Positions 24,059 to 44,380 of a stretch of DNA of 64,000 nucleotides are shown here, piece by piece. Where the stretch lies: sequence record SRR20825019_638; one strand, given 5' to 3'. Numbering within the stretch: the stretch's first letter is position 1; each line of letters begins with the position of its first letter. Both the position numbers and the translations under genes were made by a program. The notes beneath the pieces are model-generated. The model worked only from the letters and a program-made list of their open reading frames with translations, did not search any database and was not told where the DNA came from.

Positions 24059-25087
24059 ATGAAAACACCTTTGCTCGAATTTACCTCCAAAGGAATCTAT
24101 TGTAAAAAAGCAGATGTTTATTTGGACCCCTGGAAACCCGTGGACAAGGCCATTATTTCACACGGCCATGCCGATCACAGTAGATGGGGCCATAACAAGT
24201 ACATTACCCACCATAAGAATGTTCCTATCGTGAAGCATCGTTTGGGCGATATTTCCATTTCAGGAAAAGACTGGGGCGAAACATTCACGGTCAACAACGT
24301 GAAGTTCAGTTTCCATCCCGCCGGGCACATTGTGGGCTCCGCACAAATACGGGTAGAGCACAATGGCGAAGTATGGGTGTTCACCGGAGATTACAAAATT
24401 GAAGATGATGGGCTCACTACTCCATTTGAGCTTGTAAAATGTAACACCTTCATCACCGAATGCACCTTTGGGTTACCGGCATTTCGCTGGCGACCACAAA
24501 AAGAGGTGTTCAGTGACATCAACCAATGGTGGGCGCAAAACCAATCGGAAGGAAAAACCTCGGTGCTTTTTGGTTATTCCCTGGGCAAGGCACAACGTCT
24601 GATCAAACATTTGGACACTTCCATCGGAAAAATATACACGCACGGAGCCGTAGAAAACATGACCGAAGTGCTCCGACCCCTTACCGATTTACCGCCAACA
24701 CATCTGATTACAAAAGAAACCAAGAAAGACGAGCTTTTGGGCAATATTGTGGTTGCTCCGCCCAGTGCCCATGGAAGTCCCTGGATCAAAAAAATGGTCC
24801 CATATGTCACGGCGACCGCGAGCGGTTGGATGGCTTTTCGAGGCGCACGAAGACGGAGAGCGATTGATAAAGGTTTTGTACTAAGCGACCATTGCGATTG
24901 GAGGGGACTATTGCAGACAATCGAAGCCACCGGTGCTGAAAAAATAATCTGCACACACGGCTACACCGACATTTTCTCCAAATATTTGATGGAATTGGGC
25001 TACGATGCCCGAACCGAATCTACGCAATACGAAGGCGAACTGTCCGAAATCAATGCTAACGAACAAGAAAAATCGAAAGCGGAATGA
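24059..25087 (+). CDS. ligase-associated DNA damage response exonuclease (MBL/beta-CASP fold)
   Basis: SHGHADH, PAGHIVGSAQ, TGDYK, ITECTFGLP, LSDHCDW; first gene of the ligase/helicase/PdeM operon. Confidence 0.93.
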   Translation: MKTPLLEFTSKGIYCKKADVYLDPWKPVDKAIISHGHADHSRWGHNKYITHHKNVPIVKHRLGDISISGKDWGETFTVNNVKFSFHPAGHIVGSAQIRVEHNGEVWVFTGDYKIEDDGLTTPFELVKCNTFITECTFGLPAFRWRPQKEVFSDINQWWAQNQSEGKTSVLFGYSLGKAQRLIKHLDTSIGKIYTHGAVENMTEVLRPLTDLPPTHLITKETKKDELLGNIVVAPPSAHGSPWIKKMVPYVTATASGWMAFRGARRRRAIDKGFVLSDHCDWRGLLQTIEATGAEKIICTHGYTDIFSKYLMELGYDARTESTQYEGELSEINANEQEKSKAE

Positions 25088-26739
25088 AACAGTTTGCCAA
25101 GCTCATAAAAACATTGGACGGCACCAACAAAACCAGCGTAAAAGTGCAAGCACTGTCCCAATACTTTAAAGAAGCGAGCGACCAAGACAAGGTTTGGACC
25201 ATCGCCATACTGTCCCACAGAAGACCTCCGCGCCCCGTGAACACAACTTTGCTACGCACTTGGGCCGCTGAACTATCCCATATTCTAACTTGGCTTTTTG
25301 AGGAAAGCTATCATATTGTGGGAGATCTGGCGGAGACCATTGCCTTGGTGGTGCCCTCAACAGAAAAAGGCTCAAAAAAATCACTGACCTCCTTTTTACA
25401 GGAGATGATGGCCTTGAAACAAAAAACGGAAGCAGAAAAAAAGGAATACCTTTTTCAACACTGGACCATATTAGATTATTACGAGCGTTTTGTTTTCAAC
25501 AAACTGATTACGGGCAGCTTCAGAATCGGAGTGAGTCAAAAATTGATGACCCGTGCACTATCCAAAGCCACGGGTATTGAAGAGGACATTCTCGCTTATA
25601 AACTAATGGGCAATTGGGACCCGAACCGCATCAGTTTCCACGACTTGGTTTTGGAGGAGAAAGAGAGCGATTACCTCTCCAAACCATATCCCTTCTTTTT
25701 AGCATATGCCGTTGAGGACGACGTCACAGATTTGGGTGAGGTAACCCAATGGTCCGTAGAGCATAAATGGGACGGCATTCGGTCTCAAACCATTCTACGA
25801 AATGATGAAATCTTTGTTTGGAGTCGGGGTGAAGAACTCGTCACCGATAAATATCCAGAATTTGAAGCCTTTGTGGGCAGTATTCCAAATGGGACCGTGT
25901 TGGACGGGGAGTTGTTACCGTATCCCAAAGGGGAAATCGGCACTTTTAAAGACCTTCAGACCCGAATAGGCCGCAAGAACGTTTCAAAATCATTGTTGGA
26001 AAAAATTCCTGTCAAGTTGAAAGTCTATGATATTTTGGAATGGAAGGGGAAGGACATCAGGAATAAAACGTATCTGGAGCGAAGAAAAATTTTAGAATCT
26101 ATGATTTCGACTACGCTCAATAAACAGGTCACTGAGCGTAGTCGAAGTGACAAATTACCCTTACTCCTGTCCGAACGGATGCAATTCAATTCTTGGGAAG
26201 ACATGGCAAAAGAAAGGGAATTGTCCAGAGAAAAACACAGTGAGGGCCTGATGCTCAAACGCAATGACTCCACCTACCAAGTGGGACGAAAAAAAGGGGA
26301 TTGGTGGAAATGGAAGGTCGACCCGCTCACTATTGATGCCGTGCTCACCTACGCTATGCGGGGTCATGGTCGGCGAAGCAACCTCTTTACCGATTACACC
26401 TTTGCCCTCTGGTATGAAAATGAAGAAGGTGAAAAAGAACTGGTCACCTTTGCCAAGGCCTATTCCGGCTTAACGGACAAAGAGTTTCGACAAGTGGATG
26501 CATGGATCAAGAAAAACACGTTGGAGCGTTTTGGTCCCGTTCGGAGCGTGACCCCGCAGCACGTTTTTGAAATCGCTTTTGAAGGCATTGCTCCCTCCAA
26601 GCGTCATAAAAGTGGTGTTGCCACACGCTTTCCCAGAATTTTAAGATGGCGGAAGGACAAAAAAATCGATGAGGCCAATTCATTGGATGATTTAAAAGCA
26701 CTAATCCCGAGCAAAGCGAAGGAATCCCTCAACAAATAA
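25084..26739 (+). CDS. ATP-dependent DNA ligase (ligase-associated repair system) carrying repeat-derived peptides
   Basis: Motif I EHKWDGIR, LDGE, EGLMLK, WWKWK, RFPRI. Confidence 0.96.
   Translation: MKQFAKLIKTLDGTNKTSVKVQALSQYFKEASDQDKVWTIAILSHRRPPRPVNTTLLRTWAAELSHILTWLFEESYHIVGDLAETIALVVPSTEKGSKKSLTSFLQEMMALKQKTEAEKKEYLFQHWTILDYYERFVFNKLITGSFRIGVSQKLMTRALSKATGIEEDILAYKLMGNWDPNRISFHDLVLEEKESDYLSKPYPFFLAYAVEDDVTDLGEVTQWSVEHKWDGIRSQTILRNDEIFVWSRGEELVTDKYPEFEAFVGSIPNGTVLDGELLPYPKGEIGTFKDLQTRIGRKNVSKSLLEKIPVKLKVYDILEWKGKDIRNKTYLERRKILESMISTTLNKQVTERSRSDKLPLLLSERMQFNSWEDMAKERELSREKHSEGLMLKRNDSTYQVGRKKGDWWKWKVDPLTIDAVLTYAMRGHGRRSNLFTDYTFALWYENEEGEKELVTFAKAYSGLTDKEFRQVDAWIKKNTLERFGPVRSVTPQHVFEIAFEGIAPSKRHKSGVATRFPRILRWRKDKKIDEANSLDDLKALIPSKAKESLNK
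26104..26150. repeat. REP-like inverted pair in-frame inside the ligase gene
   Basis: Perfect 14-bp IR TTCGACTACGCTCA (26106-26119) / TGAGCGTAGTCGAA (26133-26146); encodes ISTTLNKQVTERSRSD. Confidence 0.9.
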
Positions 26740-30495: not shown

Positions 30496-30595
30496 ATTCT
30501 TCGCTCTCCTCAGAGTGACATAAGTAAAGACTGTTATTCCGTGCTTGACACGGAATCGTATCCGAGTGAGACGCTGAAACAAGTTCAGCGTGACG
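30494..30595. repeat. cluster of three REP-like palindromes between pdeM and mfd
   Basis: AGATTCTTCGCTCTCCTCAGAGTGACA (30494-30520, overlaps the pdeM stop), TGTTATTCCGTGCTTGACACGGAATC (30532-30557), GACGCTGAAACAAGTTCAGCGTGACG (30570-30595). Confidence 0.9.
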
Positions 30596-30639
30596 ATAAG
30601 AAACTCAAAAAAACATTTTTAGTACAAGTTTTCGCGGTT

Positions 30640-30647
30640 TATCTTTG
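30640..30647 (+). promoter_or_regulatory. -7 promoter element for mfd
   Basis: TATCTTTG matches TAnnTTTG 17 nt before the TTG start. Confidence 0.6.
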
Positions 30648-30664
30648 CCGCAAAGTTTTTTGGA

Positions 30665-33600
30665 TTGACCAAAACCCTAATTCCCAAATTATTTGAACAG
30701 TCTCCCCAACTCGGGAAACTGAGGGAGATTATTGCCCAACCTCTCGACTCCGCTCGAAGTGATAGTCAAAAAATAAGCCTTAAAGGGCTTGTAGGTTCAT
30801 CCCTTTCATTTGTGATTTCAGAAACTTTCAAGTCTGCCGAATCACCATTCTTGCTGATTTTGAACGACAAGGAAGAGGCTGCTTATCTTTTGAATGATTT
30901 GGAGCAGTTGATTGGAGAAAAAGATGTGCTTTTTTATCCCGGAAGTTATCGAAGGCCTTATCAAATCGAGGAAACGGACAATGCCAACGTACTTCTGCGT
31001 GCCGAGGTATTGAACCGCATCAATTCCAGAAAAAAACCGGCGGTAATCGTTACGTATCCCGATGCCCTTTTTGAGAAAGTGGTGACCAGAAAGGAACTGG
31101 ACAGAAACACCCAAAAAATTAAATTGGGCGATGAAATCTCGTTGGATTTTTTGAACGAAGTGCTGTTTGAATATCAGTTTAAGCGGGTGGATTTTGTAAC
31201 CGAACCCGGTGAATTTTCTGTTCGCGGCGGTATCGTGGATGTTTTCTCCTTCTCGCACGATGAACCTTATCGCATCGAGTTCTTTGGGGATGAAGTGGAC
31301 AGTATCCGAACTTTTGATGTGGAAACCCAGCTTTCCACGGACAAGGTGAAGAAAATTACCATTATCCCAAACGTAGAAAATAAGTTTACCGAAGAAATAC
31401 GGGAAAGCTTCCTAAAATATATATCCGCCAACACGGTGGTCTTTGCGAAAAACCCTGCGCTGATCTACGATCGCATTGATTCCTTTTTTGAAAAAGCTGA
31501 GGAGAGCTTTGCCAAGTTGAGTCAAGAGATCAAACACGCGAAGCCCAAGGAACTCTTTTTGGATTCAGCTTTGTTGAAAGGGCAGTTGAAGGATTATTTA
31601 TGTTTTGAGATTGGTACTTCGACTCCGCTCAGCAACCAAAATACAGGAGAAATGGTCACTGAGCGAAGTCGAAGTGACATCATTCAATTCAACACCAAAC
31701 CCCAGCCAGCTTTCAACAAAAAGTTTGATTTGCTCATTGAAAATCTTAATGACAATCGGGATGCGGGTTACAGCAACTATATTTTCTGCTCCACCGAGCA
31801 ACAGGCTAAACGCTTTCACGACATTTTTAACGAAGTGGATGAAACGGTGCACTACCAGACCATCATTTTTCCGTTGTACCAAGGTTTTGTGGACCAGAAC
31901 CTAAAGATTGCGTGCTATACGGACCACCAAATTTTTGAGCGGTACCATAAGTTCCATTTGAAGAATGGCTACGCCAAAAAGCAAGCCATCACGTTGAAGG
32001 AACTCAACAAACTGGAAATCGGCGATTATGTGACCCACATTGATCATGGTATCGGCAAGTTTGGTGGGTTGCAAAAAATTGATGTGGAGGGCAAAAAGCA
32101 GGAAGCCATCAAACTAATTTATGGCGACCGTGATATTCTCTACGTCAGCATCCATTCGCTGCATAAAATTTCCAAATACAACGGCAAGGACGGAGCACCT
32201 CCCAAAATATTCAAACTGGGTTCCGCAGCTTGGAAAAAACTAAAGCAAAAGACCAAGGCAAGGGTCAAAAAGATTGCTTTCGACCTTATAAAAGTCTATG
32301 CCAAACGGCGATTGGAAAAAGGATTTCAATATGCCCCGGACAGCTATTTACAGTACGAATTGGAAGCCTCTTTCTTATACGAGGATACTCCGGACCAAGA
32401 GAAAAGCACTCAGGATGTAAAGAAGGATATGGAGAGCGAACGCCCTATGGACCGCTTGATTTGTGGGGATGTTGGTTTTGGGAAAACAGAAGTCGCGATA
32501 CGGGCTGCGTTTAAAGCCGTGGACAACGGCAAACAGGTGGCTATTTTAGTTCCCACCACGATTTTGGCTTTTCAGCATCATAGAACATTTTCCGAACGAT
32601 TGAAAGAAATGCCGGTAACGGTGGATTACCTCAACCGTTTTAGAACAGCGAAGGAGAAAAGGGAGACCCTAGAGAATTTAGAAAGTGGGAAAGTGGATAT
32701 CATTATTGGAACGCACCAGTTGGTCAACAAAAATGTAAAGTTCAAGGATTTGGGCTTGCTCATTGTGGACGAGGAACAGAAATTCGGGGTTTCCGTAAAA
32801 GAAAAACTGCGTTCCATCAAAGAAAATGTGGATGTGCTTACACTGACCGCCACACCGATTCCAAGGACGCTACAGTTCAGTTTGATGGCCGCTCGTGACC
32901 TTTCCGTCATCAATACGCCGCCACCGAACCGGTACCCTATCGAAAGCCACGTGATTCGATTGAATGAGGACATTATCCGTGATGCCGTGTCCTACGAAAT
33001 CCAACGGGGCGGACAGGTGTTCTTCATCCATAATCGCATTGAGAACATCAAAGAAGTAGCTGGGATGATTCAGCGTTTGGTGCCCGATGCCAAAATTGGG
33101 ATTGGACACGGACAAATGGAGGGCAAAAAACTGGAAACCTTGATGCTTTCCTTTATGAACGGTGAGTTTGATGTTTTGGTTTCGACCACCATCATTGAAA
33201 GTGGTTTGGACGTGACCAACGCCAACACCATTTTCATTCACAACGCCAACAATTTCGGTTTGAGCGACCTTCATCAGATGCGCGGACGTGTGGGCCGAAG
33301 CAACAAAAAGGCTTTCTGCTATTTTATCACACCACCTTATGAAGTGATGACCACCGAGGCCCGAAAACGTATCGAAGCCCTCGAACAATTCACAGAGTTG
33401 GGCAGTGGTTTCAACATTGCGATGAAGGATTTGGAAATTCGTGGTGCCGGTGACTTGTTGGGAGGAGAGCAGAGTGGATTTATCAACGAGATTGGATTTG
33501 AGACCTATCAAAAAATACTGTCCGAAGCCATAGAGGAGCTCAAGGAAAACGAGTTCAAGGAATTGTATGATGAAGTTGAGGGCGATAAGGAAAAAGTATA

Positions 33601-34087
33601 TGTAAAAGAGATGCAGTTGGACACGGATTTTGAACTGCTCTTCCCCGATGATTACATCAACAATATTACCGAACGCTTAAACCTCTACACCCAATTGAAC
33701 GATGTAGAGGACGAGGAAGGCCTACAGAAATTTGAAGCGCAATTGGTGGACCGTTTTGGCGAGTTGCCCGAGCCTGTAGTGGATTTGATGAATTCCGTCC
33801 GTGTTAAATGGATCGCCACTCACATTGGTTTGGAAAAGGTGATCATGAAGAAGGGCAAATTTATCGGTTACTTTATTGCGGACCAGCAATCCAGTTTTTA
33901 CCAAAGTGCCGTGTTCACCCAAGTGCTGCAATATGTACAGAGCCATCCCCAACAGGCCAAGCTTAAGGAAAAACAGACCCGAACAGGTTTACGGTTACTG
34001 TTGACATTTGACAGAATCACTAGTGTGGACAAGGCGTTGAAGGTTTTGGCGCCTTTTACGCCACAAGAACAAAATGTTTCAGCATAG
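30665..34087 (+). CDS. mfd: transcription-repair coupling factor with repeat-derived insertions
   Basis: GEFSVRGGIVD, HIDHGIGKF (RID), CGDVGFGKTEVA, DEEQKFGV, TATPIPRTL, HQMRGRVGRS, DLEIRGAG (TRG). Confidence 0.98.
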   Translation: MTKTLIPKLFEQSPQLGKLREIIAQPLDSARSDSQKISLKGLVGSSLSFVISETFKSAESPFLLILNDKEEAAYLLNDLEQLIGEKDVLFYPGSYRRPYQIEETDNANVLLRAEVLNRINSRKKPAVIVTYPDALFEKVVTRKELDRNTQKIKLGDEISLDFLNEVLFEYQFKRVDFVTEPGEFSVRGGIVDVFSFSHDEPYRIEFFGDEVDSIRTFDVETQLSTDKVKKITIIPNVENKFTEEIRESFLKYISANTVVFAKNPALIYDRIDSFFEKAEESFAKLSQEIKHAKPKELFLDSALLKGQLKDYLCFEIGTSTPLSNQNTGEMVTERSRSDIIQFNTKPQPAFNKKFDLLIENLNDNRDAGYSNYIFCSTEQQAKRFHDIFNEVDETVHYQTIIFPLYQGFVDQNLKIACYTDHQIFERYHKFHLKNGYAKKQAITLKELNKLEIGDYVTHIDHGIGKFGGLQKIDVEGKKQEAIKLIYGDRDILYVSIHSLHKISKYNGKDGAPPKIFKLGSAAWKKLKQKTKARVKKIAFDLIKVYAKRRLEKGFQYAPDSYLQYELEASFLYEDTPDQEKSTQDVKKDMESERPMDRLICGDVGFGKTEVAIRAAFKAVDNGKQVAILVPTTILAFQHHRTFSERLKEMPVTVDYLNRFRTAKEKRETLENLESGKVDIIIGTHQLVNKNVKFKDLGLLIVDEEQKFGVSVKEKLRSIKENVDVLTLTATPIPRTLQFSLMAARDLSVINTPPPNRYPIESHVIRLNEDIIRDAVSYEIQRGGQVFFIHNRIENIKEVAGMIQRLVPDAKIGIGHGQMEGKKLETLMLSFMNGEFDVLVSTTIIESGLDVTNANTIFIHNANNFGLSDLHQMRGRVGRSNKKAFCYFITPPYEVMTTEARKRIEALEQFTELGSGFNIAMKDLEIRGAGDLLGGEQSGFINEIGFETYQKILSEAIEELKENEFKELYDEVEGDKEKVYVKEMQLDTDFELLFPDDYINNITERLNLYTQLNDVEDEEGLQKFEAQLVDRFGELPEPVVDLMNSVRVKWIATHIGLEKVIMKKGKFIGYFIADQQSSFYQSAVFTQVLQYVQSHPQQAKLKEKQTRTGLRLLLTFDRITSVDKALKVLAPFTPQEQNVSA
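30741..30764 (-). repeat. REP-like unit in-frame near the mfd N-terminus
   Basis: CTCTCGACTCCGCTCGAAGTGATA (rc TATCACTTCGAGCGGAGTCGAGAG) shares the GAGCG.AGTCGA core; encodes PLDSARSD. Confidence 0.75.
31616..31677. repeat. REP-like inverted pair in-frame inside mfd
   Basis: ACTTCGACTCCGCTCAGCAACC (31616-31637) / GGTCACTGAGCGAAGTCGAAGT (31654-31675); encodes TSTPLSNQNTGEMVTERSRSD. Confidence 0.92.
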
Positions 34088-34091
34088 GATT

Positions 34092-34247
34092 AGATTTCTC
34101 ACATCCGTTCGAAATGACAAGTAAGCACTCGTAGTCATTTCGACAGAGCGTAGCGACGAGAAATCCCAAGTAGCCAAGATTCCGTGTCATACTTCGACTC
34201 ATTTCGACTTCGCTCAATGACCAGCGCTCAGCATCCGCACAGAATGA
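34092..34247. repeat. composite REP-like cluster with nested units between convergent mfd and serine hydrolase
   Basis: Units at 34092-34119 and 34134-34166, plus three nested units at 34177-34247. Confidence 0.9.
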
Positions 34248-34249
34248 AT

Positions 34250-35407
34250 TTAAAAAGCCTCATACACCTGCTTCACAAACTCCCCGATTTTTGAAGGTTC
34301 CAGCCAGCGCGTCACAATGACCAAACCACTTTTTTGATCCACCACAATAAAGTTGCCTCCAAAACCTGCGGCGTAGAACACATGTTCGGGAACACCATCC
34401 CAGTGGCGTCCTCCTTGTTGGTTCAGCCACCACATATAGCCATAATTCACATTGGGCACAGAAGGCGTAGTGGCTTTTTTGATCCAATCTTCGCTGATGA
34501 TTTTCTCATTTTCCCATATACCATTGTTTAAAAAAAGTGTTCCAAAACGGGCCATATCCTCTGTGGAGATAAAAAGTCCAGCTCCAGAGTGCCCACCACC
34601 GGTCACGGATTTCATCTGTATCCCATCGACTACGGTCCAAGCATCTTCGTAGCCAAACCAACGCCAAGTTGTGGTCGCCCCGATCTTATCCATCACCTCT
34701 TCTTTGAGGACCATGGGCAGCGGTTTTCTCCACACATGGGTCAACGAATAGGCCAATACGTTTACGCGAACATCGTTGTACTCCATTACCGTACCGGGTT
34801 CGTTGAGCTTTCGGAATTTCCAATCGTCCAGACCACCTTCACTCGGTGGACGGTCCGCCCAATCCTTACCGCCCCACAATTCCCCTGACCAGTCTGAATT
34901 TTGTTGCAATAGGTGTTCCCAAGTTATTTTGGAGTTGTGCGCACCATCAAAAGTTCCATCCCAAATGTAGTCCCCCACTTTATCCTTGGTATCGTTGATC
35001 AAACCTTGGTCTTCGGCCAGTCCAGCAACAGTGGATAAAAAGCTTTTGGTGACACTGAAAGTCATATCCACACGTTTGGTGTCTCCCCAAGAAGCCAGCA
35101 GGTAGCCATTTTTCATAATCATACCTGCTGGACCGCCTCGCTTTTTGGTAGGCCCCAGAATTTGATGAAAAGGTTCATGTTTGAAGCCTTCCAATATGGC
35201 AATACGCAAATCTCTGGAACCTGAATATTCATTGGCATTGGCGTATTCTACCGCCTTATCCAAAGCTTCTTGATTCCATTTAAATTGTCCCTTTTCTGCA
35301 GCTTTCCACGTTTCGTAGCGTTGTGGGAAATTGATTTTTTGGGCGTTGACAGTAAAGGTTGTGGTGAACGCAACAAGAAGTGCTGCTGCAACTAGGGTGT
35401 TTTTCAT
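34250..35407 (-). CDS. serine hydrolase (beta-lactamase class C-like) with signal peptide
   Basis: SVTK (SxxK), EYND, GYMWW, AAGFGGN; real start MKNTLVAA, because the longer ORF reads through repeats. Confidence 0.9.
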   Translation of the reverse strand: MKNTLVAAALLVAFTTTFTVNAQKINFPQRYETWKAAEKGQFKWNQEALDKAVEYANANEYSGSRDLRIAILEGFKHEPFHQILGPTKKRGGPAGMIMKNGYLLASWGDTKRVDMTFSVTKSFLSTVAGLAEDQGLINDTKDKVGDYIWDGTFDGAHNSKITWEHLLQQNSDWSGELWGGKDWADRPPSEGGLDDWKFRKLNEPGTVMEYNDVRVNVLAYSLTHVWRKPLPMVLKEEVMDKIGATTTWRWFGYEDAWTVVDGIQMKSVTGGGHSGAGLFISTEDMARFGTLFLNNGIWENEKIISEDWIKKATTPSVPNVNYGYMWWLNQQGGRHWDGVPEHVFYAAGFGGNFIVVDQKSGLVIVTRWLEPSKIGEFVKQVYEAF

Positions 35408-35485
35408 TTTTGAGGTTTGGTTTGGACCAGAAAGGTAGTGATTGTTGGGGAATTTAGCCTTTGTCAATTCAAAGGATATTTTTAT

Positions 35486-35608
35486 AGATTCTTCGCGGCG
35501 CTCAGAATGACAAATCAGATTTCTCACTGCGTTCGAAATGACAATTAGCACTTATGGTCATTTCGACTTCGCTCAATGACCAGCGTTCAGCATCCGTAAA
35601 GAATGACA
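35486..35608. repeat. composite REP-like cluster; direct-repeat derivative of 34092-34247
   Basis: Units at 35486-35512, 35517-35543 and 35559-35581, plus remnants to 35608. Confidence 0.9.
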
Positions 35609-35614
35609 GTACTG

Positions 35615-37597
35615 CTAAAACCGTTTTTTATGAACCTGATCACCCTCTTTGTTGTAATAGCGCCAAGTGCCCACTTGCTCATCATTGCGGAAACGGCCAC
35701 GGATTTTTTGGGTGCCGTCGGGATAGAATGCTTCGTAACGACCGTGCTTTAGGCCATCCTTTAAATCCACCTGAAACCGAATGTTCCCGTTGGCATATTT
35801 TTTACTAAAGGACTTGGCATTCAAATCATTGGGGTAAATGGGCCTTAAATCAAAAACCGCATCAGTGATTTCTGTGGATGCTGTACTTTGATTTGTGGTC
35901 ACAACTTCAGTCTCGGGTTGGGCCATATCCATCGCCTTTTTCACCTCTTTCACATCCTGATAATTGAGCACCAATATGCTTTCAAACAAGTCATCTTCTG
36001 GGGACAATTGCAATCCTACTTGGGGGAAGCAGATAATAAAATCCTTGTTCTTCCGCATTTTTTGTTTGGTAGATGCATCGGCCAGAGCGTACATATTATC
36101 AAACAACAAAGGCACATTGCTGTAAACAAACACCGTGGACTCTGAATCGAATTGTTCATCAAAATTTTTGAACTCCTCCGAAGTCGCCAGGATATCGCCC
36201 TCCGATACTTTATCAATTATACCCTTTAGGGTATTGGGACTGTCACTAAAAATCACAAAGTCATCAATTTGGGTAAAGTAAGGTTTGTCAAACTCATCAA
36301 ACCTACCGCCCAACAACATCTTAAAGAAACCCTTGATGGACAAAAAGTTGATTTCATAATCCTTATAGTTGACCGCCTTGAACTTTACAGGCGTCTTTTT
36401 ACGGATCTGCTCCACCACAAAATCCAAATTGGTCTTGGCATCTTCCGCATCATTGGCTTTGAGCACCAGCGCCACATCATTTTTACCTTTAGTAATGTGG
36501 GATTTAATCTGAAGCACGCCAATTTCGTCACCAATCCAACTTACAAAATTCTCTTTTACATCAATCTTTAGGAATTTTTCCACTTTGGCAATTCCCTTTT
36601 GATAGCTCTCGAACTGTTCGGGATCGTTCTGCTGGACCATCTCAAAATTCTTGTAGAACTCAGAAAAACTATCAAATCCATAGCTGATATAAAGTGCCGT
36701 GCTGTTCGGCGCCACTTGGGGAATGGAGCGTTCCGCGGTGCCCGATTTTTGCAACGCCTCCAAATAGTATTCGTTTACGGCGCTAATGTTGGTGTATCCA
36801 TTGGCGGTCAATGTGCTGTTCTCGTCCAAATCAAAATAAAATCCAGAGAACAAAAAGTTTTCACTTACACGGTTTACCCAATCGGAAGGTTTATCGGAAT
36901 ACATTTTAACGTAATCATCAAAATAATGGTATTGCACATACATTCGGAAGAGATCTTCGTGGCCCACTTTTCGGTTGATTTCCAAAAAATTAAGGTTTCG
37001 GCCAAGCACAGGTTCCTCATACTGATCTATGGAAGCCTCTACCAAGGTGTGGGTATACGAGGCCACCAACTGGTTTTTGATGAAGGCCAGATACATCGTT
37101 TCCTTGCTCTCACGATTGTGCACTTCTAAAATCTCGTGTTCGTGGTAAATCCGTTTGCTCAGCACATAGCCATCGTCCAGTAAAGTGTTCAAATAGGTTT
37201 TGAGCAGTTGCAGTTTGGCAATGCGCTTCAAATCCAGCACGTAGAAAATTCCATAATCCTTCGGGGAAATCATATGGATGGAAATGAACAGGGAACGATT
37301 ATCGAAAAACTCGAACAACTTGTGGTTATCATTGAAAATCGTATCCACCTTTTGAATGTTCTCGGTAAGCTCTGAAAAATAATCGTTCTTTTTGAGGTGG
37401 TGCCAACCTTCACTTTGGCTGACTTTTTCCCAACTTTCCACGGGCTGTTCCGATTCAATAATGAAAACTGCATCCTTCGGAATCAGATAAATGGACTGAA
37501 GATTGGTCTTGGGAGATAGAATAAAAATATAGGCCAAATAGCACAAGTACAGCACAAACAGGCCCAACAAACCGAAAAGAATCCTTTTTTTGGTCAT
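35615..37597 (-). CDS. DUF3352-like membrane-anchored protein with C-terminal MORN-variant repeats
   Basis: N-terminal TM; SWIGDEIG; C-terminal KDGLKHGRYEAFYPDG / VGTWRYY. Confidence 0.7.
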   Translation of the reverse strand: MTKKRILFGLLGLFVLYLCYLAYIFILSPKTNLQSIYLIPKDAVFIIESEQPVESWEKVSQSEGWHHLKKNDYFSELTENIQKVDTIFNDNHKLFEFFDNRSLFISIHMISPKDYGIFYVLDLKRIAKLQLLKTYLNTLLDDGYVLSKRIYHEHEILEVHNRESKETMYLAFIKNQLVASYTHTLVEASIDQYEEPVLGRNLNFLEINRKVGHEDLFRMYVQYHYFDDYVKMYSDKPSDWVNRVSENFLFSGFYFDLDENSTLTANGYTNISAVNEYYLEALQKSGTAERSIPQVAPNSTALYISYGFDSFSEFYKNFEMVQQNDPEQFESYQKGIAKVEKFLKIDVKENFVSWIGDEIGVLQIKSHITKGKNDVALVLKANDAEDAKTNLDFVVEQIRKKTPVKFKAVNYKDYEINFLSIKGFFKMLLGGRFDEFDKPYFTQIDDFVIFSDSPNTLKGIIDKVSEGDILATSEEFKNFDEQFDSESTVFVYSNVPLLFDNMYALADASTKQKMRKNKDFIICFPQVGLQLSPEDDLFESILVLNYQDVKEVKKAMDMAQPETEVVTTNQSTASTEITDAVFDLRPIYPNDLNAKSFSKKYANGNIRFQVDLKDGLKHGRYEAFYPDGTQKIRGRFRNDEQVGTWRYYNKEGDQVHKKRF

Positions 37598-42277: not shown

Positions 42278-44380
42278 ATGGCTCAAAATACTTCACCTTC
42301 CAGATACACTATTACTGCGGCACTGCCCTACACCAACGGTCCTATCCATATTGGGCACTTGGCCGGCGTATACGTTCCTGCAGACATTTACTCCCGTTAT
42401 TTACGGTTAAAAGGCAACGATGTGGCCTTTGTCTGCGGTAGCGACGAGCACGGTGTGGCCATCTCCATGAAGGCCAAAAAAGAAGGTGTCACCCCAAAAG
42501 AAATCATAGACAAGTACCACAGCATCATCAAAAAATCGTTTGCTGATTTTGGTATTTCTTTTGACAATTACTCCAGAACTTCAGCCAAAGTTCATCACGA
42601 AACTGCTTCCGAATTTTTCAAAAAAATGTATGAGCAGGGTGACTTTATCGAAGAGGAGACCGAACAATTGTACGATGATGAGGCCAAACAGTTTTTGGCA
42701 GACCGATTTGTCATTGGAACCTGCCCCAAATGCGGACACGAAGAAGCCTATGGCGACCAATGTGAAAACTGTGGCTCCTCTTTAAATGCTACGGACCTTA
42801 TCCATCCAAAATCCACCATAACCGGAACAGTTCCTTCTTTAAAAAAGACAAAACATTGGTTTTTGCCTTTGGACCGCTATGAAGGATTCCTGAAAAAATG
42901 GATTCTAGAAGAACATAAATCCGATTGGAAACCCAATGTGTACGGACAATGTAAATCTTGGATAGATGAAGGCTTGAAGCCTAGAGCTGTCACTCGCGAT
43001 TTGGATTGGGGCATTCCCGTACCTGTTGCTGGTGGGGAAGGCAAAGTACTTTATGTATGGTTCGATGCGCCCATCGGCTACATTTCATCCACCAAGGAGT
43101 GGGCCGAACGTGAAGGTAAAGATTGGGAACCGTATTGGAAAGATGAAAGTACCAAATTGGTACATTTTATCGGTAAGGATAATATTGTGTTCCACTGTAT
43201 TATCTTCCCAAGTATGTTAAAGGCCAATGGTGATTTTATTTTGCCTGACAATGTGCCTGCCAATGAGTTTCTGAACCTTGAGGGCAACAAACTTTCCACC
43301 TCCAAAAACTGGGCGGTTTGGTTGCACGAGTATTTGGAAGAGTTCCCGGATATGCAGGATGTACTTCGTTATGCGTTGACGGCAAATGCACCGGAGACTA
43401 AGGATAACGATTTTACGTGGAAGGATTTCCAGGCGAGAAACAACAACGAACTCGTAGCCATTTTTGGAAACTTTGTGAACCGAGTGGCTGTGCTGACGCA
43501 TAAATATTATGATGGAGTTGTGCCAGCACCGGCTGAATTCAAAGCTGTTGACAAAGAAGCCTTGGAAGCGCTGAAAGCGTTTCCGGATACCCTTTCCACA
43601 TCATTGGAACGCTACCGTTTCCGCGAAGCCAGTCAGGAATTGATGAACTTGGCCAGATTGGGCAACAAATATTTGGCAGATCAAGAACCGTGGAAATTGA
43701 TAAAAACCGATGAAGAGCGCGTCAAGACCATTATGTTCGTGGCGCTTCAGATTGCGACGGGATTGGCAGTGCTTAGTGAGCCATTTTTACCTTTTACTTC
43801 GGAGAAATTAAAAGGAATTCTCAATGTCATTTCGAACGAAGGTGAGAAATCTATCGAATGGGATGATGTTAGTTTAAAAGAAACCTTACTTTCAGCAGGA
43901 CACACCATCAACAAAAGCGAACTGCTCTTCAGAAAAATCGAGGACACCGAAATTCAACAACAACTGGATAAATTGGAAGCCACTAAAAAAGCAAATGCTT
44001 CGACTACGCTCAGCACAAGTGCAATGGATAAAGAAGCATCTCCGCTCAAAGACACTATCACTTTTGATGACTTTGCTAAACTTGACTTGCGGGTCGGAAC
44101 CATTATCGAAGCCGAAAAAATGCCCAAAGCCGATAAACTTTTGATTTTAAAGGTAGACATGGGACTTGATACCCGGACCATTGTATCCGGTATTGCCAAT
44201 AGCTTTACACCCGAGGACATTGTGGGCAAAAAAGTAACCGTTGTTGCTAATTTGGCCCCTCGTAAACTACGTGGTGTGGAAAGTCAAGGTATGATTTTGA
44301 TGACGGAAAATAAAAATGGTAAATTAGTTTTTGTCAACCCGGACGAACAAGACGTCACGAACGGGGAAACCATTAACTAA
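42278..44380 (+). CDS. metG: methionine--tRNA ligase with C-terminal tRNA-binding domain and repeat-derived insertions
   Basis: [17 protein letters not shown], zinc knuckle CPKC..CENC, YVWFDA, KLSTS; TATTTTTG promoter at 42252-42259. Confidence 0.98.
43825..43852 (+). repeat. REP-like unit in-frame inside metG
   Basis: TGTCATTTCGAACGAAGGTGAGAAATCT, nearly identical to the rc of 10791, 34092 and 35517; encodes VISNEGEKS. Confidence 0.92.
43996..44019 (-). repeat. second REP-like unit in-frame in the metG interdomain linker
   Basis: TGCTTCGACTACGCTCAGCA(CAAG); 14-nt core identical to 26106-26119; encodes ASTTLSTS. Confidence 0.88.

Follow-up and report, generated by a model that had tools for sequence, protein, structure and literature searches.

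A three-level nest of REP-like miniature hairpin repeats downstream of mfd, probably built by additions at hairpin tips

The window analyzed here is a stretch of 64,000 nucleotides from record SRR20825019_638 that carries, as identified from Pfam matches, an ATP-dependent DNA ligase gene (25084-26739), mfd (30665-34087), a beta-lactamase-family gene on the minus strand that is convergent to mfd (34250-35551), and metG (42278-44380). The stop codons of mfd and the convergent gene are separated by a spacer of 162 nt, and within this spacer, at 34177-34247, lies a three-level nest in which an outer hairpin repeat, the C unit, encloses a middle S unit, which in turn encloses an inner S unit, all in the same orientation. 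An earlier note on this DNA had described three hairpins inserted successively into each other's loops; the exact string that it quoted is present, and its parts map as follows on the plus strand. The left arm of the outer C unit (34177-34189) consists of AG, the stem ATTCCGTG, and the first loop bases TCA, and it is followed by the left part of the middle S unit (34190-34199), with T, an imperfect stem AC, and the first loop half TTCGACT. The inner S unit (34200-34223) comprises the stem CAT, the loop TTCGACTTCGCTCA (34203-34216), the stem ATG, the tail ACC, and A. The right part of the middle unit (34224-34236) then resumes with G, which is loop position 8, the second loop half CGCTCA, the stem GCA, and the tail TCC, and the right arm of the C unit (34237-34247) closes the nest with G, the stem CACAGAAT (one mismatch relative to the left arm), and GA. 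The tag of this outer unit reads GAAT where GACA is usual.

When the inner unit is excised, the flanking halves TTCGACT and GCGCTCA join to form the 14-mer TTCGACTNCGCTCA, the loop of the S units that also occur in the ligase gene, mfd, and metG. When the middle unit is excised as well, AGATTCCGTGTCA and GCACAGAATGA are joined to a sequence that is one base short of, and has one mismatch to, the form AGATTCCGTGTCAAGCACGGAATGACA, and a plain, un-nested C unit indeed stands reversed upstream of mfd (30536-30556, minus strand, ATTCCGTG-CTTGA-CACGGAAT). Both restorations had been claimed in the earlier note and are reproduced here, as is its observation that the breakpoints lie in the loop of the host hairpin with no clear target duplication, since none is visible in the sequence at either nest junction.

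The nested arrangement is real and results neither from chance nor from misassembly. At the base frequencies of the window, an S unit would have both S half-loops at its sides by chance with a probability of about 6e-8 per unit. An assembly artefact, which had been named as a possible refutation, is not borne out: the genome G001 is identical to the window over the nest region (331 of 331 letters), and the contigs of four public runs placed on 33900-35700, all of them short-read contigs, agree with it. Contigs of run X3, which may be the source of the window, span the stretch with no differences, and those of X11 cover 34094-34304 with none; those of X12 (59 differences in 1801 bases) and X14 (15 in 952) run through the nest without any indel, the differences being substitutions only. 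One of these substitutions, 34184 G>A in the X12 strain, breaks a further pair of the outer stem, so that the innermost stem is perfect, the middle one has one mismatch, and the outer one has one mismatch here and two in another strain. Outer stems may thus decay once they have been split by an insert. A single metagenome contig of X11 joins 34049 to 34250 via 761 other letters and probably represents a relative with a different spacer.

The units that make up the nest belong to real families, which we counted in G001, a near-identical genome that contains 100% of the sampled words of the window. S units have a conserved 14-nt loop, TTCGACTNCGCTCA, enclosed by a short, variable, paired stem of 3-5 bp and followed by the tail WCC. 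Their loop has 53 matches in G001 at no more than one mismatch (38 of them exact) versus 3 control matches; the three base pairs that close it are all paired in 42 of the 53, with at least 15 different stem sequences (among others CCC/GGG 15 times and CGC/GCG 6 times), and ACC or TCC follows 32 of the 53 units. Across the phylum, the exact 14-mer is found in 50 of 151 genomes and 38 of 89 genera (controls, 0-1), with up to 90 copies of the loop in one genome (G097), and it is conserved across classes while the stems vary, which argues that something conserved reads that loop. The C unit, AGATTCCGTG-TCAAG-CACGGAATGACA, is 27 nt long and TGTC-tagged, with an 8-bp stem and a 5-nt loop; in plain copies, the stem ATTCCGTG / CACGGAAT encloses the loop TCAAG. 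A and B units have the common ends AGATT...AATGACA, and the P unit is a 21-nt hairpin.

Several of these units stand in the window outside the nest. An inverted pair of A units (34092-34165, plus strand, AGATTTCTCAC..TTCGAAATGACA and the reversed partner) forms a long REPIN-like hairpin beside the nest, with arms at 34093-34100/34158-34165 and 34109-34118/34134-34143; it folds at -12.9 kcal/mol (z -3.1) and is kept in most congeners. Inverted S pairs lie in the reading frame of mfd, in frame (31618-31673, plus strand), and inside the DNA ligase gene (26106-26146, plus strand). An S unit loop is also located in frame within metG (43999-44012, plus strand); it is present in G025, and G020 is without 21 nt that G025 has there, which indicates that in-frame deletion also removes units. 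In metG, another in-frame unit, of A-like type, is located at 43826-43851, where G025 has an S-like unit.

The earlier note had proposed a search for un-nested ancestral alleles at the 3' end of mfd, and un-nested alleles exist in relatives. We found mfd and the downstream gene to be syntenic in all 25 genus genomes drawn, and the spacer could be read with both gene ends anchored in 18 of 20 loci, with lengths of 51-945 nt. In three genomes, the C unit stands by itself at 4-9 nt from the same end of the downstream gene, in the intact form AGATTCCGTGTCAAGCACGGAATGACA in G005 and G014 and with one more substitution in G009 (CACCGAAT). In three others (G006, G011, and G015), the loop of the C unit encloses an S unit that is uninterrupted, and these middle units have diverged from one another. 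All three layers are present only in G001 among the 18 spacers read. Elsewhere, this site is different in nearly every congener: in G020, the sister of G001, and in G025, the left arm and the left half of the middle unit are present along with an odd right part; a B unit occupies the site in G024 and G019; and the remaining congeners have other genes or nothing recognizable. The existence of one-, two-, and three-layer alleles at the orthologous site supports the view that the nest grew as units were added into loops.

A midpoint-rooted tree built from 1 kb of the downstream gene (18 rows; of 15 inner branches, 4 are starred and 4 unresolved) gives these alleles an order. Under the midpoint root, the one-layer genomes are early branches, the genomes with a middle unit all fall in one clade (support 99/97), and G001 is sister to G020 (support 97/95). 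The most parsimonious reading of these sequences would be that the middle unit was gained once, on the branch leading to that clade.

The age of the inner unit is less straightforward. A second, half-nested copy at 35557-35608 (plus strand) contains an inner S unit and, after it, the middle and outer units reduced to their right halves, and is 94% alike over 49 nt; together with an A unit at 35517-35543, it equals the 34092-34247 cluster minus 64 nt between 10-nt direct repeats (TCATTTCGAC). This copy is common to G020, whose own mfd-3' site is without the inner unit, and the inner unit may therefore predate the split of G001 and G020 and have been lost in G020; alternatively, the second copy was derived from another composite.

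In addition to the mfd-3' site, we compared the window with 72 kb of syntenic sequence from G020 and G025. Gaps of at least 12 nt within aligned blocks number six and represent five events, all five of which are hairpin units and four of which lie in the loop of another unit. In the ligase gene, where the window has a plain S unit, G020 reads TTCGACT, then the inner unit as in the nest, then GCGCTCA; that is, the identical unit has entered the identical loop position of the second S of the pair. The loop of the second S of the mfd pair holds an in-frame 21-nt P hairpin in G020 and is without it in G001, G010, G011, and G042, an A-unit loop in G020 holds a 16-nt hairpin (A to A[K]), and the S-like unit in metG of G025 contains a P hairpin. 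The C unit upstream of mfd is plain in the window and its near-identical genome G001, in G010, and in G024, and in G020 it holds both a middle and an inner unit. The G020 nests in the ligase gene, in mfd, and upstream of mfd are independent of one another and fall within a single stretch of 10 kb. Overall, about 10 nesting events are backed by orthology, and all of them lie in the host loop and none in a stem.

The position and orientation of these events are specific, and more sharply so than the word "loops" would suggest. By its core alone, P is found 27 times in four of five genomes; it sits at TCGACTN^CGCTC, between loop positions 8 and 9 of S-like loops, in 17 of the 27 by a strict test and in about 21 by eye, always in one orientation, and it leaves the host's own position-8 base, which is variable among hosts, in place. 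The other copies comprise three free ones (L113, L114, and L124), one ambiguous case, and two that lie in an A loop and in another hairpin, respectively. S units with a TCAT stem occur 12 times in five genomes, with 8 nested at the same spot, 1 half-nested, and 3 free. The inner unit (24-25 nt) is found at the same S loop position in G020, G025, G043, G013, and G004, and a search of 61 genomes for the 38-nt S-in-S composite gave 11 copies, in 6 of them, and no control match. The 12 fully nested S[S] copies all have ..ATGACCAG|CGCTCA at the junction, while loop position 8 is A or T in the un-nested orthologous hosts and G in only 4 of 53 free loops. Insertion of S into C similarly loses the middle A of TCAAG. 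This exchange of a single apex base is equally compatible with templated copying and with an enzyme.

The claims that small units are themselves mobile and that loops are preferred targets can each be accepted in part. In sister genomes, single units of 16-25 nt do arrive alone within units that were already there (ligase S to S[S], Mfd S to S[P], and A to A[K]), and whole composites move as well. Likewise, all of the roughly 10 orthology-backed events fall in loops, at a fixed position and in a fixed orientation, and most free S units lie outside hairpins. An outer helix of at least 6 bp surrounds 5 of the 53 free S units in G001, against a mean of 1.5 and a maximum of 7 for shuffled pairing, and S units are also found in plain coding DNA; loops are thus not the sole targets, which counts against insertion at tips as a complete account. 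The stricter idea that S units always land in hairpins was rejected because the flank complementarity of the free units is only weakly in excess.

Composites also recur as blocks. The whole triple nest is present elsewhere in G043, at 2.41 Mb in G020 (orthologous to C4 of G025), and upstream of mfd in G020; whole composites are found at four or more other loci, and the triple-nest copies in G043 and G020 are 88-93% like that of the window. The C unit upstream of mfd in G020 gained both a middle and an inner unit, with no intermediate seen, and these recurrences indicate that blocks move too. In G004, a region of about 20 kb (C1:1645391-1666185) holds at least five A[S[S]] composites of the form AGATTTCTCC..CCCCCTCGACT, the inner unit, and CGCTCAGGGTGACAGCTCGAAATGACA.

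Our results lead us to propose that the three-level nest of REP-like miniature hairpin repeats probably arose by the addition of each unit at the tip of the previous hairpin, with the order of the steps taken from the comparison of genomes. A C unit would first have been present beside the convergent beta-lactamase-family gene, 4-9 nt from its stop; an S unit of about 23 nt would then have replaced the middle A of its loop; and a second S unit (stem CAT/ATG, 24-25 nt) would finally have entered the center of the S loop, at position 7/8. We infer that these additions were copy events aimed at an exposed hairpin tip, either extruded or on single-stranded DNA, that they were position and orientation specific, made no target duplication, and were independent of a RAYT, and that composites, once formed, would have been copied as blocks. 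An origin of the inner unit by tandem duplication was rejected, because the unit has its own paired stem and ACC tail, like the free units L034, L142, and L147.

What agent would carry out such additions is a more tentative matter. The most likely candidate, though one that we hold with less than even confidence, is an enzyme acting in trans to nick and join DNA at hairpin tips. Against insertion at tips stand the facts that no enzyme was found, that G020 shows no replichore bias, and that the tree covers 1 kb with a midpoint root. In the strand test of G020, which placed dnaA at 1.90 Mb and assumed a terminus opposite to it, the loop sense was on the leading strand in 16 of 32 S clusters. A search of five genomes for a long element that starts at the left junction of P found none, the 22 junction matches being 18 short P copies and 4 chance matches, and no target duplication was detected at any mapped junction. 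More speculatively, it is possible, if doubtful, that a conserved host or selfish enzyme of the phylum recognizes the 14-nt S loop and the tips of related hairpins, cuts there on extruded or single-stranded DNA, and pastes in hairpins of 21-25 nt in a fixed orientation without duplicating the target. If true, this would constitute a new class of hairpin-tip-directed, RAYT-independent DNA insertion, and it would explain why the loop is conserved across classes when the stems are variable, why units are stacked in loops, and why the linkers of repair genes have been invaded repeatedly.

A process without a dedicated enzyme is unlikely to be the full explanation, yet it has enough in its favor to be weighed with care. 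Replication might stall or break at an extruded hairpin, and the nascent strand might then switch to a related hairpin located elsewhere, in which an insert is already present, copy that insert, and switch back, with pairing through the shared loop halves (TTCGACT / CGCTCA) or through shared C arms, so that short-patch conversion spreads nests. The apex base is donor-like, as would be expected of such microhomology-templated copying, with CCAG before CGCTCA in 12 of 12 S[S] copies and A or T in un-nested orthologues, and the middle A of TCAAG is dropped when S enters C. Inserts are confined to one orientation and to the point between the conserved halves of a host that belongs to their own or to a related family, exactly as expected, and no transposase, target duplication, or parent element was found. 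In G001, two loci (L023 at C38:389026 and L024 at C38:398496) have the same flanks and the same stem, GTCGC/GCGAC, but differ in the direction of the S loop, which appears to have been inverted inside an unchanged palindrome, as template switching at inverted repeats would give. However, this process offers no account of first arrivals at places without homology, such as metG, the Mfd linker, the filling of spacers, and the free P units, its microhomologies are only 6-7 nt, and P retains the host's position-8 base, with nothing between the halves replaced. The tip-directed enzyme and templated copying may also act together, the former opening new sites and the latter spreading composites.

It is rather improbable, in our estimation, that a ready-made composite, either the middle plus inner units or a C[S[S]] block of about 70 nt, was copied into or over a resident C unit at the mfd-3' site in one event. 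The similar triple nests in G043, at 2.41 Mb in G020, and upstream of mfd in G020 would fit such an event, as would the acquisition of both layers by the last of these with none in G001, G010, and G024 and no intermediate known, and the five A[S[S]] copies in about 20 kb of G004. Nevertheless, the two-layer form is present at this very site in three congeners, whose middle units are diverged as by old vertical descent, and the inner unit entered a pre-existing S alone in the ligase gene of G020.

A REP/RAYT (REPIN) system, in which a domesticated Y1 transposase would move the S, C, and A units as its REPs, is highly improbable. Their size, hairpin form, inverted doublets, and lack of target duplication are REPIN-like, and the four S-richest genomes, which belong to other genera (G092, G097, G102, and G127), each have 5-7 Y1_Tnp matches. 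Yet only one of five genus genomes has a Y1_Tnp match, an IS200-type gene that has hairpin ends of its own and lacks a neighboring S unit; G131 carries 19 S loops without any Y1_Tnp; and none of 19 Y1_Tnp loci from the four S-rich genomes, 1.9-2.0 kb each, contained an S-like loop at up to two mismatches, other GC-rich hairpins flanking these genes instead. The GTAG tag, moreover, is absent from the consensus forms of the C, A, S, and P units. The sole Y1 gene among the five genus genomes (L070, 1459-1920, on C34 of G001) is an IS200-type tnpA of 153 aa that is apparently inserted in a gene. In the loci from the S-rich genomes (L173-L191), the Y1 genes encode about 150 aa, and some of the hairpins beside them end in ..GTTTGTAG; these look like classical REP/RAYT units that co-exist with S units.

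Equally remote is the idea that the nest is a terminator, mRNA stabilizer, or protein-binding site whose coaxial helices are maintained by selection rather than by mobility: its location between convergent genes, the covariation of S stems, and the conservation of the loop across the phylum (50 of 151 genomes), pointing to a loop-binding factor, would suit such an element, but this reading was dropped because the 73-nt nest is no more stable than shuffles (plus strand, -4.3 kcal/mol, z +1.2; minus strand, -7.1, z +0.4), and against it stand also the decaying outer stems, the absence of terminators and promoters from scans of 33900-34400, the absence from the whole window of any Rfam family at the gathering score (with only chance-level matches, E 1.8 or more, in 33950-35700), the difference of the site in nearly every congener, and the presence of the same units in frame inside genes.

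Among known systems, the outer C unit is matched by a TGTC-tagged variant of the CGTC-tagged REPs, which the relevant passages of Di Nocera, De Gregorio & Rocco (2013, PMC3733652) report from Bacteroidetes. Those repeats, tagged CGTC, TGTC, or CCTC, are mostly head-to-head dimers, are also found inside replication and repair genes, and form a class that "apparently lacks a dedicated transposase" (PMC3733652). Read on the other strand, the C unit has TGTC, an 8-bp stem starting with AT, a 5-nt loop, and a short tail, and the present units occur in repair genes too (mfd and the DNA ligase gene). In contrast, the same passages describe "loop variants" with self-complementary inner parts and no unit in the loop of another, and the loops there are 4-5 nt long (PMC3733652), while S units have a 14-nt conserved loop and a variable stem of 3-5 bp. 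The C unit ends in ..GGAATGACA (TGTC on the other strand) in G005, G006, G014, and G015; the G009 copy keeps the tag, with a stem that reads CCGAATGACA, and the C copies upstream of mfd in G010, G020, and G024 also have it. Besides the GAAT of the nested copy, the window has a mutated tag, TGTT, at 30536. A stem of 8-9 bp that starts from A-T and T-A pairs and encloses a loop of 4-5 nt is found in plain C units and not in S units. At the untagged end, where the superfamily consensus is CCA, C and A units have AG (CT on the other strand), S units have ACC or TCC in the 32 of 53 copies mentioned above, and the inner unit has ACCA.

The likeness to REPINs, in the portions of Bertels & Rainey (2011, PMC3116915) that bear on it, extends to non-autonomous miniature hairpins, inverted doublets, vertical persistence, and the lack of target duplication; in contrast to that system, the present units have no GTAG tag and no RAYT beside them, most genus genomes searched are without Y1, and single units, not only doublets, are newly inserted. 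Inverted doublets are represented here by the A pair beside the nest and by the S pairs in mfd and the ligase gene. The "peel and paste" elements of the IS200/IS605 family have hairpins in single-stranded DNA, a specific short target, a fixed orientation, and no target duplication. Unlike them, the present units have no associated TnpA and no replichore bias in G020, and their target is a loop tip. The terminal inverted repeats, target duplication, and related autonomous IS of a MITE are not seen together either, there being no duplication and no long element at the P junction. Nor is this a mosaic of the BIME type, in which REPs adjoin one another in alternating orientation and with set linkers, the three units here lying one inside the other in the same orientation, with only the A pair side by side.

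Rickettsia palindromic elements (RPEs) share with the present units the toleration of in-frame hairpin repeats in the linkers of conserved proteins, one Mfd linker here holding units in 29 of 30 genomes (none recognizable in G048). RPEs are longer, at about 100 nt or more, and to our knowledge their nesting in one another's loops has not been described. They are named among intragenic palindromes in the passages of PMC3733652 referred to above. IS elements that target REPs (Tobes & Pareja 2006, PMC1525189; ISPpu9, PMC12288879), so far as the consulted portions of these reports go, likewise use one fixed position in a hairpin repeat, which is rebuilt on their removal; those are full IS elements with a transposase, whereas the inserts here are gene-less hairpins of 16-25 nt. 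The mobile GC clusters of yeast mitochondria (Wu & Hao 2015, PMC4478555, in part) are also small hairpins that merge and shuffle into composites; in contrast to the present units, they are organellar, have a putative target duplication AG, and combine conserved stems with variable loops, which S units reverse. In the text of the literature searched, no report of miniature hairpins that lie stacked in one another's loops was found, and the consulted portions of PMC4524435, PMC12306157, PMC2800124, and PMC4478555 do not describe nesting.

For the question of how RAYT-less REP-like repeats spread, this locus and its relatives provide before-and-after alleles, exact junctions, and inserts of 16-25 nt. 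The fixed position and orientation, the lack of target duplication, and the replacement of one apex base make that question testable with hairpin oligonucleotides and by strain comparison. These units also reshape, in frame, the linkers of the conserved proteins Mfd, DNA ligase, and MetG. Moreover, composite REP "loop variants" may represent stacked insertions instead of single families, a point of importance for the annotation of repeats.

Further loci illustrate the range of arrangements that these units take. The Mfd linker at 31595-31700, between the UvrB-interaction and RID domains, has different in-frame hairpin sets by lineage, which may be an S pair, a GAGACCCTGAAACAAGTTCAGGGTGAC-type hairpin, or CTCGACTGCGCTCGA-type units, and across 30 genus genomes the segment measures 69-141 nt, always a multiple of 3. 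The spacer upstream of mfd (30496-30664 in the window), readable in 29 of 30 loci, is a unit-free 57-58 nt in G051, G013, G042, G056, and G014 and extends to 640 nt of stacked and side-by-side units in G053. In G020, same-strand S clusters are found at 3.97-3.99 Mb. Finally, a non-coding tandem array in G001 (L031, 256-879; C60, about 99705-100328) has 6.1 copies of a 101-nt period with one S unit each and adjoins runs of the heptamers AGTCAGG and CAGTAGG.
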